Shown here: positions 3,223 through 53,225 of the stretch, in pieces
Position numbering within the stretch: position 1 is the first letter of the stretch
Layout of the letters: the number at the start of each line of letters is the position of its first letter
NCBI GenBank assembly: GCA_943356775.1
Contig: CALRFU010000001.1
Coordinates: 78,891 to 142,890 of the forward strand
Reading direction: 5' to 3'
DNA: 64,000 nt
Origin: Candidatus Nomurabacteria bacterium
GTDB lineage: Bacteria; Patescibacteriota; Minisyncoccia; Phycocordibacterales; UBA2100
Made by a program: the position numbers and the translations under genes
Notes under the pieces: generated by a model
Database searches by the model: none
The model's input: the letters and a program-made list of their open reading frames with translations, nothing else
What the model was told of the DNA's origin: nothing

Positions 3223-3234
3223 GCTAATACATAA

Positions 3235-3265
3235 TAAGCATGCGATCGCACGCTTATTATGTGAG
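3235..3265. other. Near-perfect 30-nt palindrome immediately after dnaB stop
   Basis: ATAATAAGCATGCGATCGCACGCTTATTAT with inner GCGATCGC core. No clear T-tract, so terminator function is uncertain. Confidence 0.3.
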
Positions 3266-7037: not shown

Positions 7038-7421
7038 CTAGGTTGCGTGCTTCTCGGGCAGAGGACGCATGAGGGGCGTAAAGAGTGGGACGACTGCGAC
7101 CAGTCCGTACCCTACCCAGAGATACCAATCGCTATACATACTCCAGCCCGAGAAAGGCACCGTGTATACAGCATCCAGTAACGCCATCATAAGTGCCCAG
7201 AAAGCTGAATATGGGAGGATGTCTTTCCAAGAATAAAAGCGGAGCGAATGGCCCGCGACGGTCGTCAAGAATATCAGCACGCACAATCTGAAAAGAAGTG
7301 AGAGTGTGCCGCCGGCGATACCGTATATAACAAGACCGGACCACACGAGCGACATCACGGCGTAAATGACAATGCCCCATCCTAGGAGTGCCCCGTATTT
7401 CATAGCACCATTATACGGCAA
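7038..7421 (-). CDS. Small integral membrane protein, hypothetical
   Basis: 127 aa with 4 hydrophobic helices. Directly downstream of the preceding membrane gene with a 1-nt gap. Confidence 0.4.
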   Translation of the reverse strand: MPYNGAMKYGALLGWGIVIYAVMSLVWSGLVIYGIAGGTLSLLFRLCVLIFLTTVAGHSLRFYSWKDILPYSAFWALMMALLDAVYTVPFSGWSMYSDWYLWVGYGLVAVVPLFTPLMRPLPEKHAT

Positions 7422-7449
7422 ACAGCCCCCGCTATTGGCGGGGGCTGTT
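7421..7449. other. Perfect GC-rich hairpin between RRM gene 3' end and membrane gene start
   Basis: AACAGCCCCCGC-TATT-GGCGGGGGCTGTT: 12-bp perfect stem with no flanking T-tract. Confidence 0.4.
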
Positions 7450-13245: not shown

Positions 13246-14535
13246 CTAGTATATCTTGCCCCGACGCTTTCGATGCCACGAAATCGCAAATCTGTGAGCT
13301 TCGTTGTTGGCAAGCAAAATATCGCGCTCATAGGCTTGTATTGCACCCTTGTCACCAATGAGTCGCTCAGGCTTATGAAATTGATTTTTGACAACACCCA
13401 CTATCGGTATGCTTATCCCCGTCTGTTTTAGAAGCGTCTGAACTGCGCGCATCTGGCCGATTCCCCCGTCGACGACAAACACGCGCGGCAAGGGCCATTC
13501 AGGATGATTGAGACGCCGCGAGAGCGCTTCTTTGAGCGAAGCCACGTCATCATTGGTCGCCGTTTGAATTTTGAATTTACGGTATGCCGCTTTTATTGTT
13601 TCGCCGCCGTCCACTACAGTCATCACAGCCACGGTCTCCGCGCCACTCGTATGTGCGACATCATATGCCTCTATCCGTATGCCGCCTGTCCTGAGTCCTA
13701 TCGAAGGGCCGCCGGACGCTATACGATGTTCATCTTTGATAAGCGATACGTCTCGGATATGTTCGAGAGCGTGCATCTGTCGACGCAGCTGCGTTGCTTC
13801 CTCGAATTTCTCAGCCCCCGCTGCGACCTTCATTTCACGCGCAAGTGCCCGCTTTAAACCCATGAAATTACCTGAAAGAAAAGTGGAGATGTGTTTAACA
13901 CGTTGCGCATACTCTTTTTTACTCACCTCGCCCGTGCACACGCCGGGACAGAGCCCTATCTGGCGATTGAAACAAGGTTTGCATGTTCGACCTCGTAGGT
14001 CGCTCATGTTCGACTTCGTAAGTCGAACATTCTGGTCGGGGCACGGTACACACTTCGCATCCCGGAACGGGAATATTTTCCGGACTATCTTCAGGGCTTC
14101 CTGAAGTTGCGTGCCGTGTGGGAAGGGGCCGAATGTTTTTTTGATGTCTTTTGTATCCCAATTCTGGTAGAGCTCACGGCCTCGTACGATGAGCACCCGC
14201 GGGTAGTCTTCCTTTGTTATCACAACATAATTAAAACTTTTGTTATCTTTCTCATCGACATTGTACGGGGGCTGATGCTTCTTGATGAGATTTGCTTCGA
14301 GTATTAAGGCTTCAAGTATCGAATTCGTTTTTGTATGCGTGATTGTTTGTGCTTCCGCAACCATGCCGACGATTCTTTCGCCGCGACCTTTTATCAAATC
14401 CGAAGAAAAGTAGCTTCGAACACGGTCGCGCAAAGACGTAGCTTTCCCGATATACAGTATCTTTTTACCTTTTTTAAACACATAGACTCCCGGCTCATCG
14501 GGTAGTTTGAACTTCTCTAAGTCCGTACGTTTCAT
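13246..14535 (-). CDS. uvrC: Excinuclease ABC subunit C, short form lacking C-terminal (HhH)2
   Basis: N-terminal GIY-YIG (GVYVFKKGKKILYIGKATSLRDRVRSYF), Cys-rich segment, UvrBC-like region, C-terminal RNase H-like endonuclease (IEAYDVAHTSG; VVDGGIGQ). 429 aa. Confidence 0.85.
   Translation of the reverse strand: MKRTDLEKFKLPDEPGVYVFKKGKKILYIGKATSLRDRVRSYFSSDLIKGRGERIVGMVAEAQTITHTKTNSILEALILEANLIKKHQPPYNVDEKDNKSFNYVVITKEDYPRVLIVRGRELYQNWDTKDIKKTFGPFPHGTQLQEALKIVRKIFPFRDAKCVPCPDQNVRLTKSNMSDLRGRTCKPCFNRQIGLCPGVCTGEVSKKEYAQRVKHISTFLSGNFMGLKRALAREMKVAAGAEKFEEATQLRRQMHALEHIRDVSLIKDEHRIASGGPSIGLRTGGIRIEAYDVAHTSGAETVAVMTVVDGGETIKAAYRKFKIQTATNDDVASLKEALSRRLNHPEWPLPRVFVVDGGIGQMRAVQTLLKQTGISIPIVGVVKNQFHKPERLIGDKGAIQAYERDILLANNEAHRFAISWHRKRRGKIY
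13984..14031. repeat. Two overlapping copies of a 25-nt palindromic element (one exact, one degenerate) inside uvrC
   Basis: ATGTTCGACCTCGTAGGTCGCTCAT overlapping ATGTTCGACTTCGTAAGTCGAACAT. The exact copy recurs in uvrA. Forms an 11-bp stem with a 3-nt loop. In-frame; encodes NVRLTKSNMSDLRGRT. Confidence 0.7.
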
Positions 14536-18940: not shown

Positions 18941-21589
18941 CTATTTCTTGCCTCTTTTTAGAATTCGCTTCAGGTAGTAGCCGGTGTGTGAACCATCAGT
19001 CTTCGAAACTTCCTCGGGGGTACCTTTAGCGACAATTTTGCCGCCGCCCTGGCCTCCTTCCGGACCCATGTCGATAATGTAATCGGCACACTTGAGTACA
19101 TCGAGATTGTGTTCGATGGCTATGACCGTATTACCCCGTTCGACAAGTTTTTGCAGAATATTTACAAGCTTCGCCACATCGTCGTAGTGAAGCCCCACCG
19201 TCGGCTCGTCGAGCAGATATATGCTTTTTGTAATGAACGGGCGGTAGAGTTCTGATGCAATTTTGACGCGCTGCGCTTCGCCGCCGGAGAGCGTCGTCGC
19301 GCTCTGGCCAAGCTCGAGGTATCCGAGACCCACATCAATCAGGCTTTGCATTCTGTCCGAGACAGCCGGTATGTCTTCAAAGAATGAGTACGCCTCTTCC
19401 ACGGTCATTGAGAGCACATCGTGAATGCTCTTTTTCTTGTATTTCACTTCGAGCGTCTCTTTCATAAATCGCTTGCCGTTGCACACATCGCACGTGACGT
19501 AGACGGTCGGAAGGAAGTGCATCTCTACCGCGACCAAGCCGTTGCCCTGACATGCTTCGCAGCGACCGCCTTTGACGTTGAACGAGAATCGGCCCGGCCC
19601 CCATGCGCGGGCACGGGATTCTTCCGACATCGCAAACATATCTCGGATATGCGTCCAGGCCCCTGTGTATGTCGCAGGATTCGAGCGCGGCGTGCGCCCT
19701 ATCGGAGACTGGTCTATCAATATCGCCCGCCCGAGATATTCGGTGCCTGAAAATTCTTTTGCATTGTATATTTTGGCAGTCCGATATCGCTTATCAAAAC
19801 GCGCCTGCAAATTCCTGTGGAGAATTTCGTAGAGAAAAGTAGACTTGCCGGAACCGGAAACCCCGGAAACAACGACAAACTTCGCGAGTGGTATATCGAC
19901 ATTGAGGTTCTGTACATTGAATTTGTTCGCGCCGCGGATCTTTATCTTGCCCCTGTCGGCCGTCCTCCGTTGCTCCGGTATTTCTATCATCGTCTCCTCG
20001 CGTAAATACGAGAGGGTGCGTGAACCGGATTTGTTGGTCTTGGCGGTAAGGAGTTCATCGAGCCAACCCTCAGCGACGATTTCCCCTCCATGAACACCGG
20101 CACCGGGACCCAAATCCACGATGTAGTCTGATGCGTAAATGGTATCTTCGTCATGCTCCACGACGAGTACCGTGTTGCCCAAATCACGGAGATGTTTAAG
20201 CGTATTTATGAGCTTATCGTTGTCGCGCTGGTGGAGGCCGATAGTCGGCTCGTCGAGTACGTAGAGAGCTCCCACAAGCCCTGAACCGAGTTGCGAAGCG
20301 AGCCTAATGCGCTGGGCCTCACCTCCCGATAGGGTGTTGGCTTTGCGGTCTAGAGTGAGATATTCGATTCCCACATTGAGCATGAATTGAAGCCGGCTCG
20401 TTATCTCCTTTATGACAGTACGTGAAATATCCTGCTCCTTCTTACTGAGCTTTAGTTTCTCGAAGAAATCTTGCGCATCCTGAATGGAAAGACCGGCAAG
20501 CCGCACGATACTCATTCCTTCAACCGGCCCTTTGCCTTCTTCTCCCGTGACCTTACCCAGGAGCACATTGAGGGCTTCCGGCCGCAAACGCGCGCCCTTA
20601 CACACGTCGCACGCCTCATCGCCAAAGAAATATTTCGTTCCGAGTCCTTTACACTCCGGGCAAGCTCCGTAGGGCGAGTTGAATGAGAAGAGGCGCGGCT
20701 CTATCTCCGGGAACGAAAATCCGTCATACGGGCACATAAACTTTGCGGAAACAATGGTGCTCTCACCTTCCGCATCGGTAATTTTTACCAGGCCCTCGGA
20801 TTCGGTGAGCGCACGCTCTATTGCCTCGCTCGCACGCTCGCGGGCGGCTTTTGGATCGTCCACGAATTCTGAGACGAATAGCTCATCCACCACCACGTCG
20901 ATATCATGCTTGTGATGCTTTTGGAGTTCAATACGCTCGCGCAGAGACTTGTCCGCACCGTCGACAACAACCTTTTCAAATCCCTTATTCAAAAGGTCAT
21001 AGAGCAACTGGTAGTATTCACCTTTGCGACCAACAACGACGGGCGAGCTGATGCGTATCTTTGCAACAGATACCCCCTTCGTCAGTATGTTCGACTTCGT
21101 AAGTCGAACATCTGATGTGTGTTTTATTGCCTTCTCGACGATATTCAGCACCGACTCCAAAATTTCTTCATTTGAATGTTTGCGCACCTCGCGTCCGCAA
21201 ATAGTGCAGTGTGGCTTCCCTACCCGCGCATAGAGCACGCGCAAGTAGTCGTATATTTCGGTGATAGTCGCTACCGTCGAGCGCGGGTTGTTGGATCGGC
21301 TCTTTTGGTCTATGGAAATAGCGGGGGACAAGCCCGTAATCTCATCCACATCCGGCTTTTGCATCTGGCGTAAAAATTGACGTGCATAAGCGGAGAGAGA
21401 CTCAACGTACTTGCGTTGACCTTCTGCAAATATCGTATCGAACGCGAGTGAAGACTTCCCGCTCCCGGAAAGCCCCGTGAAAACAACCATTTTGTTGCGC
21501 GGTATCTCGACACTCACATTCTTGAGGTTGTGCGTGCGGGCGCCCTTAATGACGATCTTATCGCTTCCAATATGCTTTTTTTCGGCCAT
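18941..21589 (-). CDS. uvrA: Excinuclease ABC subunit A
   Basis: 882 aa with two ABC ATPase modules ([12 protein letters not shown]; [13 protein letters not shown]) and zinc-finger Cys pairs. Signature LSGGEAQR occurs twice. Confidence 0.95.
21087..21111. repeat. Exact copy of the 25-nt palindromic element inside uvrA
   Basis: ATGTTCGACTTCGTAAGTCGAACAT, identical to 14007..14031. In frame; encodes D160-VRLTKSN-I in UvrA. Confidence 0.7.
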
Positions 21590-26980: not shown

Positions 26981-27464
26981 CAATCTGACAATACGGCGCA
27001 CTTGCGTTCTCTTTGAAGTAATTTTGATGATACGACTCGGCGGGAAAGAATTTTCCGAGCGGAATTACTTGCGTCACGACGCGCGTACCATCCTTGAGAG
27101 ATTCTTGGATTTCTTGCGCTATCTTTTCCGCAATCGCTTTCTCTTCTTCTGTCTCATACAAAATCACCGACCTGTACTGCTCCCCTACGTCCGCACCTTG
27201 CCTGTTCTGTGTTGTCGGATCATGCGAACCAAAGAAAACGGTAAGCAAATCTTCGTACGAAATAATTGCGGGATCGTATGTCACGCGGATAACTTCCGCG
27301 TGCCCCGTTGTTCCGGTACTAACTTGCTCATACGTAGGCACCACTTGTGGTGAGCTTGTCGAACCACCGGCGTATCCAGATTCCACCTTCAGAACCCCCT
27401 TCAACATCTGAAATACAGCCTCCGTGCACCAAAAGCATCCACCTCCGAATACTGCTGTTTTCAT
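26922..27464 (-). CDS. msrA: Peptide methionine sulfoxide reductase MsrA
   Basis: 180 aa with MKTAVFGGGCFWCTEAVF active-site motif. Full-length. Confidence 0.9.
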   Translation of the reverse strand: MKTAVFGGGCFWCTEAVFQMLKGVLKVESGYAGGSTSSPQVVPTYEQVSTGTTGHAEVIRVTYDPAIISYEDLLTVFFGSHDPTTQNRQGADVGEQYRSVILYETEEEKAIAEKIAQEIQESLKDGTRVVTQVIPLGKFFPAESYHQNYFKENASAPYCQIVIEPKIEKVKRRFAELVRQ

Positions 27465-27549
27465 ATAGTGATTGTAACAAAAAATGAAATAAATACGTGT
27501 TATTCTTGTGTACTATAGAGATACCTTCTTAAGGCTTGATTTTTTCTGC

Positions 27550-31318: not shown

Positions 31319-31714
31319 TCAAATATCCATGCGGCGATGATACAAATTCGCCCAGCACATAGTCAGTAATCGGTCCTCGGCAACACGTTCTGCCATCTGT
31401 TTTTCCTCTTCGTTTTCGTACAAAACAACTGAACGATATTGCCCGCCAACATTCGCACCTTGTCGATTCGACGTAGTCGGATCATGCGAACCAAAAAAGA
31501 CGGTGAGTAAATCTTTATAGGAGATGGTGGCAGAATCGTACGTGACGCGAATGACCTCTGCATGCCCTGTGTTGCCACTACTCACTGCATCATACGAAGA
31601 ATTGTCCATCGCCCCTCCCGCATATCCTGATTCCACTTTTTCAACCCCTTTGAGCATTTGAAAAATGGCCTCTGTGCACCAAAAGCATCCACCTCCGAAT
31701 ACTGCTGTTTTCAT
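31319..31714 (-). CDS. MsrA paralog, C-terminally truncated (possible pseudogene)
   Basis: 131 aa. N-terminus identical to msrA (MKTAVFGGGCFWCTEA) with 41 nt of perfect nucleotide identity. Diverges after about 110 aa and stops flush against the permease stop codon. Confidence 0.5.
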   Translation of the reverse strand: MKTAVFGGGCFWCTEAIFQMLKGVEKVESGYAGGAMDNSSYDAVSSGNTGHAEVIRVTYDSATISYKDLLTVFFGSHDPTTSNRQGANVGGQYRSVVLYENEEEKQMAERVAEDRLLTMCWANLYHRRMDI

Positions 31715-31748
31715 CTCGCCAGTATATCAAAACGATGCTATACTTTTT

Positions 31749-45007: not shown

Positions 45008-45032
45008 GGCCCCCATGCATCGCATGGGGGCC
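45008..45032. terminator. Perfect GC hairpin between convergent uppP and GNAT genes
   Basis: GGCCCCCATGC-ATC-GCATGGGGGCC: 11-bp perfect stem; flanks only weakly T-rich. Confidence 0.4.
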
Positions 45033-53026: not shown

Positions 53027-53225
53027 GAGTTGGAAAGAACAAGTGTTTTTGACGTAGGGCGACTGCCGCGCTACGCCGGTTTGCGTGTCGCCTTTTCAGC
53101 AAGGCCGGATATGCCCTCGCGACGCTATAGTTCAGCTTCAACCATCGCAAAAGGAGGTCTGAGAACTTTCATTTTGTTTGTCCTTCGTTTAGTTGTGGCG
53201 GCGGAGCCGAGGCTCCGCCGTAGAG

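Follow-up and report, generated by a model that had tools for sequence, protein, structure and literature searches.

We analysed a 64-kb stretch of DNA from a Candidatus Nomurabacteria bacterium (contig CALRFU010000001.1, positions 78,891 to 142,890; the whole stretch is called the window below), in which a perfect 25-nt palindrome, ATGTTCGACTTCGTAAGTCGAACAT, occurs once in uvrC and once in uvrA. It is quite likely that these palindromes are dispersed elements resembling repetitive extragenic palindromes (REPs), and that they are the cognate hairpin of a clade of HUH/Y1 enzymes resembling REP-associated tyrosine transposases (RAYTs), widespread in Kaiserbacteria and other Paceibacteria-type members of the candidate phyla radiation (CPR). 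An intragenic REP-type hairpin in uvrA or uvrC is a published phenomenon, and what appears to be novel is the system behind it. Labels of the form L### denote fetched DNA loci, and those of the form P#### denote proteins.

The palindrome in uvrC and uvrA

The two perfect copies of ATGTTCGACTTCGTAAGTCGAACAT were located on the minus strand at 14006..14030 in uvrC (13246..14535, minus strand, 429 aa) and at 21087..21111 in uvrA (18941..21589, minus strand, 882 aa). Each has an 11-bp perfect stem and a 3-nt loop that is CGT on the plus strand, and on the coding strand the unit reads GTTCGACTT-ACG-AAGTCGAAC with AT on either side. Both copies are in frame and share one common frame, encoding (N)VRLTKSN(M) in UvrC and (D)VRLTKSN(I) in UvrA, so that the uvrA copy reads DVRLTKSNI, and the CAG/CTG bases flanking the uvrA hairpin lengthen its stem. 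A second, partly decayed hairpin, ATGTTCGACCTCGTAGGTCGCTCAT, was found in uvrC at 13983..14007 on the minus strand. It has 4 mismatches to the perfect 25-mer, overlaps it by 2 nt (AT) at an offset of 23 nt, and encodes MSDLRGRT in a frame unlike that of the perfect copy; by its sequence it falls into a sister subfamily, GACCT...AGGTC, from which it departs at two more positions. Read together, the two uvrC copies encode NVRLTKSNMSDLRGRT. The earlier note on this DNA had given the sequence, stem and loop of the uvrC palindrome correctly but its coordinates one base too high, and the degenerate copy that it reported is present but was placed at 13984-14008; its identical 25-mer in the same frame of uvrA was borne out. 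The uvrC inserts lie between Cys residues of the Cys-rich segment, in a loop that is hypervariable in Kaiserbacteria, and the estimate of about 15 extra UvrC residues was roughly right, as the nearest REP-less orthologs have about 13 residues fewer in that loop. The uvrA insert lies in a hypervariable loop just before the UvrA_inter (UvrB-binding) domain.

No fourth copy was found in the 64-kb window at up to 6 mismatches. In 100 dinucleotide shuffles of the window, matches with up to 3 mismatches numbered 0.00, and when the window was scanned for hairpins that have T-ACG/CGT-A at the centre and pair in 9 or more of the 11 stem positions, 3 were found vs 0.045 in shuffles, all 3 of them in uvrC or uvrA. 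Chance as the source of the repeated palindrome is thus ruled out by the shuffles. When folded as single-stranded DNA (ssDNA), the uvrC segment reached -15.9 kcal/mol (z -6.1) and the uvrA segment -13.0 kcal/mol (z -6.3), and the z-scores across the 25-nt hairpin segments ranged from -6.1 to -7.0. An identical UvrC protein, insert included, is encoded by 12 contigs assembled independently of one another (NCBI, ENA, Logan), so an assembly artefact is unlikely; the longest of these is CALRDZ010000001.1, part of the metagenome-assembled genome (MAG) GCA_943355075.1. Homologs of this UvrC are proteins of Candidatus Kaiserbacteria and other Patescibacteria, and the gene order uvrB-murB-uvrA-carB-carA-uvrC-ddl is kept in relatives. 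At only 429 aa, the window UvrC consists of UvrC_M and an RNase H-like domain without the C-terminal (HhH)2 domain, and Kaiserbacteria UvrC orthologs of 401-475 aa resemble it in domain make-up.

Dispersed copies and hypervariable host loops

The 21-nt core of the palindrome, GTTCGACTTNNNAAGTCGAAC, was scanned against one genome per species (185,579 species genomes). A search for further copies had been proposed in the earlier note, and this one gave 66 sites in 52 stretches, with about 60 of the sites in 24 Patescibacteria MAGs. These MAGs are Kaiserbacteria, Adlerbacteria, Nomurabacteria and Parcubacteria/Paceibacterota, some of them carrying a Saccharibacteria label. At 58 of the 66 core sites the free bases of the loop read CGT or ACG, and the 5 or 6 matches in other phyla, whose loops differ, look like chance. 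Across 61 loop-oriented copies the conserved flank bases were A-2 (51/61), T-1 (60/61), A+1 (59/61) and T+2 (43/61), and nothing was conserved beyond these A-T/A-T flanks; since flank conservation ends at A-2 and T+2, the repeat unit is exactly the 25-mer. Exact cores numbered 1-5 per genome, with 18 in the MAG JAIFWM01. Most copies are singlets and some form pairs 23 or 48-49 nt apart. In JAIFWM01 we observed intergenic hairpin pairs at 48-49 nt spacing with unrelated 27-nt spacers (L020:5507/5555, L042:765/814, L044:1869/1917 and L047:465/513); a CRISPR-like nature of these pairs was rejected because there are two units only and no arrays.

About half of the scanned copies are intergenic and the remainder lie in frame within unrelated genes, where they use all three frames and both orientations and encode differing peptides, for example CSTYEVEH. 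Thus the copies are not confined to coding regions or to one reading frame, a point that the earlier note had left to be checked, and its opinion that a shared protein motif is not the explanation was upheld by the same observations. Only 1 of the 6 frames of the hairpin unit holds a stop. Outside the RAYT genes, and with the window included, the VRLTKSN/VRLRKSN frame was used by 13 bona fide in-gene copies and the other two frames by a handful. The in-frame hosts are UvrA at the site used in the window (L009, with a flipped loop giving VRLRKSN, and L028; the site is also filled in P0122, P0141, P0145, P0146 and P0180), UvrC at two other sites (L013, L026), PheT at three sites (L016, L017, L046), a beta-lactamase-like protein at one site with opposite loops (L043 and L048), and also CarA, phosphoglucomutase (PGM), an AddA-like helicase-nuclease, a GT2 glycosyltransferase, BacA and a large surface protein. 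The core scan gave 16 bona fide in-gene copies that are not in RAYT genes; UvrA, UvrC or the AddA-like protein hold 5 of these and PheT holds 3. Loop flips between ACG and CGT were seen both at orthologous sites and within the RAYT modules described below.

The alignment of orthologs, also proposed earlier, showed that the insert is patchy among UvrC and UvrA proteins, while the 25-mer itself stays unchanged at the nucleotide level between orthologs whose flanks share just 65-77% identity; a 69%-identical UvrC (L006), for instance, has the identical 25-mer at the identical site. In 16 of the 61 copies (L009-L060 and the window) the flanks of the 21-nt core extend the palindrome by at least 4 extra complementary bp, which is commoner than the approximately 2.6/61 expected by our own estimate, and the internal hairpins of RAYT genes reach 21 bp (L099:+143). 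This flank extension hints at palindrome growth via fold-back or template switching.

The host loops themselves were compared. In 120 UvrC orthologs (66-100% identity) the stretch from the first Cys residues to the KPC motif has 0-40 extra residues, which fall into recurrent peptide families, and palindromes, perfect or decaying, were found in the DNA of this Cys-loop in four orthologs. L006 has the same 25-mer together with a TGAACGACTT-type copy, L008 has three consecutive hairpins, L143 has GCTAATTCGCGCGAATTAGC, and L141 has a 38-nt perfect palindrome (L141:10515-10552) that is a head-to-head dimer of AGCAAGGCGAC(A/G)CCTTGCT, the hairpin flanking the RAYT-like gene of L015. In 120 UvrA orthologs (83-100% identity) the loop from 'IVE.ARK' to 'LTKGVS' is as variable as that of UvrC. 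Seven of the proteins hold VRLTKSN or VRLRKSN there and three hold the sister peptide VRPTRSN; other peptides of the loop are AARQGLAA, which is common to the UvrA loop and UvrC, and RDFVNPDI, which is the peptide encoded by the ATCGGGATTT hairpin inside RAYT genes, so this last UvrA loop is probably tied to that hairpin. Several palindrome families are common to the uvrA and uvrC loops, and in most UvrA and UvrC orthologs the hairpin is absent, with unrelated palindromes or none at that loop. The element-bearing loops are only 2-4 aa longer than those of element-free orthologs, and this small net gain suggests insertion followed by trimming, or replacement.

Two side observations concern similar loops. 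Copies also recur in the CarA loop 'LG....F.DPN', as NVRLTKSNI at L028:1275 and HVRPRRSNI in carA of L143 (8764-9852); the L143 copy is of the sister subfamily with a flipped loop, and the CarA of the window has no copy. UvrC also has a second lineage-specific 8-aa insert, GPSIGLRT (window 13669-13734), which is GPSMGLRA in P0008 and P0013 and is absent from most orthologs, and no hairpin was detectable at this site of UvrC.

A RAYT-like gene carrying the same hairpin

In locus L034, an open reading frame (ORF) overlapping two hairpin copies matched Pfam PF01797 Y1_Tnp (IS200-like Y1 transposase), and tblastn found this Y1 protein of about 220 aa in 8 of approximately 47 CPR loci that had been fetched solely via the hairpin. 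Seven of the eight loci share one architecture, with a hairpin 39-53 nt 5' of the start, one in frame at +133..+162 and one just past the stop. The eighth locus, L015, represents a distant, second RAYT-like clade: its gene (L015:4403-5029) is 38% identical and is flanked by an unlike hairpin, AGCAAGGCGACGCCTTGCT (L015:3991, 4328 and 5081). Orthologs of the RAYT-like gene with an internal in-frame cognate hairpin are located at L034:2900-3565, L041:4410-5084 and L058:5923-6600 and in L061-L140, and the reading frame of the internal copy varies between orthologs (MFDLRSRT vs VGLTKSN in L056 vs VRLRKSN in L012). Among the fetched loci of the multi-locus MAGs JAIFWM01, CAYWMQ01 and CAYHST01 there is one module per MAG, and in CAYHST01 the UvrC copy (L013) occurs together with a RAYT gene having the same hairpin (L034).

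The protein has 3041 homologs at E <= 1e-5; every one with a named source is patescibacterial, and their annotation is 'transposase' or 'hypothetical'. Its sole NCBIfam match was NF047646 'REP-associated tyrosine transposase' at 35-44 bits (E 1e-8 to 1e-11), which by sequence makes it a distant RAYT relative and not a member of the NF047646 equivalog. Its invariant residues are N76-H77-Y78-H79 (the HUH motif) and Y137-I-H-L-N-P (Y137-x-H-x-N-P), and its C-terminal extension, YRWSSY.DY, is conserved. The AlphaFold model was of medium confidence (pLDDT 61.7, core 71-88) with a beta-alpha-beta-beta-alpha-beta-alpha topology, which is the order of HUH Y1 enzymes, and residues 42-59, including the hairpin-encoded peptide, were modelled as a disordered, low-confidence loop with pLDDT below 50. 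A Foldseek search of the PDB returned Y1 transposases for 25 of the 25 best matches, with E 3e-5 to 3e-4 for 2A6M, 4ER8 and 2XM3: IS608 TnpA (2A6M) matched at E 3.3e-5 and the E. coli RAYT bound to its REP hairpin (4ER8) at E 4.8e-5, and ISDra2 TnpA and an IS200 transposase were further matches. A sequence-profile search of the PDB with the RAYT alignment gave 0 matches, and only the fold search gave any. Judged by its motifs and modelled fold, the protein is a HUH/Tyr Y1 transposase of RAYT-like type.

Metagenomes were scanned with the RAYT-like protein alignment, and 80 further loci were obtained, 77 of them with a full-length gene match. Most of the 77 have a perfect hairpin at +125..+166 (stem 9-21 bp, loop ACG/CGT), and nearly all loci without a perfect internal hairpin hold a near-perfect one. 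At least 15 stem variants occur between loci, for example TGTTCGACTT, TGTTCGACCT, TGTTCGAGAT, TGATGGAGAT, ATCGGGATTT, TGAACGACTT and TGACGGGTTT. Many RAYT genes, of the MFDLVGRT and MFDLRGRT types, have as their internal hairpin the variant TGTTCGACCT, which is of the same GACCT/AGGTC subfamily as the degenerate copy in the window. Of these metagenome loci, 50/51 have the gene's own variant 2-52 nt upstream of it and 45/49 have it 1-42 nt downstream, and within one locus the internal, upstream and downstream copies are identical.

Covariation was analysed in 44 distinct internal hairpins. Changes were found on both sides in 9 of 11 pairs, and compensatory cells numbered 140 vs 41.8 in shuffles (0/500 reaching the observed count); 98.1% of cells were paired, a percentage that is partly circular because the rows had been preselected as hairpins. 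The presence of a hairpin at one gene position everywhere and its match to the flanking copies are independent of this row selection. Two stem pairs never vary: the closing T-A and a G-C located five positions away from the loop. Taken as sequences, the three module copies evolve in concert and their stems covary between lineages.

Origin of the hairpins and relation to known systems

The earlier note had proposed a mobile or recombinogenic palindromic element that tolerates in-frame insertion, and both the dispersed family and the cognate RAYT-like Y1 family support this proposal. Several points weigh against it in the form given here. No RAYT homolog was found in the 64-kb window by tblastn; the tie of the source genome to RAYT is by family only, and the hairpins' mobilisation by a transposase is something we infer. 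The NCBIfam scores do not reach the NF047646 cut-off of 80 bits, the pairing percentage is in part a product of row selection, and the low number of exact cores per genome is a further point. The in-gene copies are not clean insertions, as their net gain is 2-4 aa, and a 25-nt unit with a 23-nt tandem offset is not frame-preserving by itself. Clean insertion boundaries were not recovered from filled vs empty sites, given hypervariable loops and the small net gain, and no presence/absence polymorphism was seen between near-identical strains, so ongoing mobility is without support.

The hairpin could instead be a functional cis-element kept in uvrA and uvrC, for example an mRNA or ssDNA structure that is bound by a domesticated Y1 enzyme and tunes the expression or activity of nucleotide excision repair (NER). 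We consider this unlikely, although 3/3 window hairpins are in NER genes, 5/16 in-gene copies of the genome scan are in UvrA, UvrC or the AddA-like protein, and the 25-mer is nucleotide-perfect amid diverged flanks. The three identical copies kept by RAYT genes also imply sequence-specific recognition, and a like bias is known in other phyla, where the uvr genes are often the sole REP-tagged genes of a species (PMC3733652). Patchiness speaks against such a function, most UvrA and UvrC orthologs being without the hairpin or having unrelated palindromes, as do the copies in PheT, CarA, PGM, BacA, GT2 and intergenic DNA, the decay of the second uvrC copy and the lack of any Rfam match for the hairpin. 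That the module is an autonomous insertion sequence (IS) of the IS200/IS605 type, with the scattered hairpins as its orphaned or abortive ends, is also rather improbable. The fold and Pfam family are indeed common with IS200/IS605 TnpA, and the hairpins at both gene ends look like a left end (LE) and a right end (RE), but there is a single module per genome among the loci of multi-locus MAGs, the hairpins at both ends and inside the gene are perfect and identical, without a distinct LE and RE, there is no conserved tetranucleotide target or guide, and the NCBIfam match is to the RAYT model only.

Two simpler explanations were refuted. A local event, that is uvrA-uvrC gene conversion, template switching or an assembly artefact, would fit two identical perfect copies only 7 kb apart, but the identical 25-mer occurs in many genes of 24 other genomes, the same UvrC is on 12 independent contigs, and the 69%-identical L006 UvrC has the same 25-mer at the same site, which leaves this reading very little room. 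A conserved protein motif VRLTKSN common to UvrA and UvrC, suggested by the same peptide and frame in both genes, is hardly credible at all: copies elsewhere use other frames and the opposite strand or are intergenic, loop flips alter the peptide at orthologous sites, and the AlphaFold model of the RAYT protein shows the segment as disordered.

Other candidates were tried and rejected. The NER hosts and the GTTC/GAAC half-sites prompted a comparison with the LexA/SOS operator, a palindrome in the promoters of damage-inducible genes; the LexA/SOS motif is GAAC-N4-GTTC, whereas the copies have GTTC-N13-GAAC, lie in the middle of coding sequences (CDSs), and occur elsewhere in PheT, CarA, PGM and intergenic DNA, and a literature search on a LexA/SOS link gave nothing specific. 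For a DNA uptake sequence the copy number is far too low. Hopping from a RAYT gene beside the uvr cluster was examined by tblastn of all window proteins against 88 RAYT loci, which gave only 4 stray matches; because RAYT genes do not adjoin the uvr cluster, local hopping fails to explain the NER bias. This bias, which the earlier note had found striking, is real here but was already published in 2013 by Di Nocera et al. for intragenic REPs, which favour UvrABC genes; there it is unexplained and was called hard to ascribe to chance (PMC3733652).

Further features were seen in the window and in a relative. The window has 10 perfect stems of at least 9 bp vs 0.68 in shuffles, and among them are perfect intergenic hairpins with stems of 9-12 bp at 1672-1695, 7421-7449, 45008-45032 and 53199-53220; these, for example GGCCCCCATGC-ATC-GCATGGGGGCC, look terminator-like and are unrelated to the REP family. 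At 3229-3262 there is a 34-nt near-perfect palindrome, ACATAATAAGCATGCGATCGCACGCTTATTATGT, with the core GCGATCGC. The segments 27126-27482 and 31388-31732 are diverged direct repeats of about 340 nt with 72-80% identity, 4.26 kb apart, and are probably paralogous genes. On contig L002, which is of the same species (identical UvrC), a 604-aa serine recombinase (L002:5532-7346) lies approximately 0.4 kb downstream of the 247-aa gene that comes after ddl; the source contig L001 has no such recombinase among its called genes, and this difference is strain-level variation.

Among known systems, the hairpin and its enzyme are closest to the REP/RAYT systems or REPtrons, such as E. coli TnpA(REP)/YafM with REPs and bacterial interspersed mosaic elements (REP-BIME) and the REPIN-RAYT system of Pseudomonas. 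Both have a short dispersed hairpin repeat, here a 25-nt unit within the 20-40 nt of REP palindromes and with 3 copies in the window, though these are few compared with classical REPs; both have a single-copy HUH/Y1 gene flanked by its own repeat, seen here in relatives (8 genome loci, and 50/51 metagenome loci on the 5' side and 45/49 on the 3' side); and in both the repeat sequence covaries with the enzyme lineage, the fold here matching 4ER8. Low copy number is also a feature of RAYT groups 1 and 4 (PMC5581495). The CPR hairpin differs from classical REPs in being without the GTAG/GTGG tag at its 5' foot in 61 copies, which is one more point against the assignment, and in having a perfect 11-bp stem and a fixed 3-nt ACG/CGT loop. 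Unlike REPIN doublets and mainly extragenic REPs, its copies are mostly singlets and about half of them (3/3 in the window) are inside ORFs. The CPR RAYT CDS holds an in-frame hairpin copy, and its protein of about 220 aa, with the YRWSSY.DY extension, falls below the NCBIfam RAYT cut-off and belongs to the CPR/Patescibacteria lineage.

Intragenic REPs have been described in frame in uvrA, uvrB, uvrC, uvrD, recBCD and polymerase genes, as singles or dimers that encode 8-30 aa, in Proteobacteria, Verrucomicrobia (Opitutus) and Rickettsia, and they are GTAG- or CGTC-tagged (PMC3733652). The hairpins described here likewise lie in frame in repair genes and at recurrent sites, but they are a different family, with a demonstrable cognate transposase gene. 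The earlier note had likened the palindrome to Rickettsia palindromic elements (RPEs) and to HIP-type repeats. The likeness to RPEs holds only for the tolerance of palindromic repeats in frame in surface loops of conserved proteins; RPE-1 type elements are 100-150 bp long and to our knowledge have no known transposase, whereas the CPR unit is 25 nt long, has a cognate Y1 gene and belongs to the Kaiserbacteria lineage. The likeness to HIP did not hold, since HIP1 is an 8-bp palindrome at very high genomic frequency and our unit has 25 nt and 3 copies in 64 kb. With IS200/IS605 elements (IS608, ISDra2) the family shares the Y1 HUH transposase fold and, presumably, hairpin recognition on ssDNA. 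Whole IS200/IS605 units are multicopy, with distinct LE/RE hairpins and a conserved target tetranucleotide, in contrast to one module per MAG among the fetched loci, identical end hairpins and no conserved flank here.

Among the papers searched, none linked RAYT or REPIN with CPR, a text search with the literal repeat sequence gave no match, and a hairpin copy inside the transposase gene is not described in two REP/RAYT surveys (PMC3733652, PMC5581495). The CPR REP/RAYT system appears to be novel because of its Patescibacteria clade, the missing GTAG tag, the perfect fixed-loop hairpin and the concerted internal copy.

We propose the following mechanism for such a RAYT-linked hairpin. Cleavage next to a hairpin recognised on ssDNA is known from IS608 and ISDra2 TnpA and from E. 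coli TnpA(REP). By analogy, the CPR enzyme would bind its hairpin on ssDNA and nick and rejoin the DNA beside it; this binding, cleavage and spread we infer because the protein is homologous to 4ER8 and IS608 TnpA and the three copies evolve in concert. Now and then it would copy or paste the hairpin elsewhere, with a preference for sites at or beside existing hairpins, a preference consistent with both the tandem copies that have an AT in common in three independent uvrC loci and the repeated use of the same loops. In gene-dense genomes many copies would land in genes, and the survivors would be in-frame copies in tolerant surface loops, the hydrophilic VRLTKSN frame being favoured. The Cys-loop of uvrC and the uvrA loop before the UvrB-binding domain would be such tolerant loops, struck repeatedly by several hairpin families and thereby made hypervariable, and the copy at 13983-14007 would be an older, decaying member of the sister subfamily.

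It is improbable, though of consequence if true, that the uvrA and uvrC hairpins are not neutral passengers but reflect a functional interplay of a domesticated Y1 enzyme with NER. In that case binding or nicking at the in-gene hairpins, or effects on mRNA, could modulate NER and hence the mutation or recombination rate; alternatively, NER genes might be preferred targets since NER processes the enzyme's covalent tyrosyl-DNA intermediates. Under this reading, the copy within the CDS of the enzyme itself would serve for autoregulation or as a master copy, and there would be a mechanistic basis for the unexplained cross-phylum UvrABC bias of intragenic REPs.

Both the mechanism of REP spread and the preference of intragenic REPs for UvrABC and other repair genes have been open questions since REP/RAYT was first described (PMC3733652; PMC8266576). 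As dispersed cognate hairpins of a RAYT-like clade, the CPR family offers a clean system for these questions, with a minimal 25-nt hairpin and three identical copies per enzyme gene, one of them inside the frame, and the at least 15 natural stem variants covarying with the enzyme are a ready specificity-swap series for hairpin reading by Y1 enzymes. The family extends REP/RAYT biology to the ultrasmall, gene-dense Patescibacteria, where the element acts directly on protein sequence by making loops of UvrA, UvrC, CarA and PheT hypervariable. In annotation, the unusual 8-16-aa inserts and the variable length of CPR repair proteins can be traced to it.

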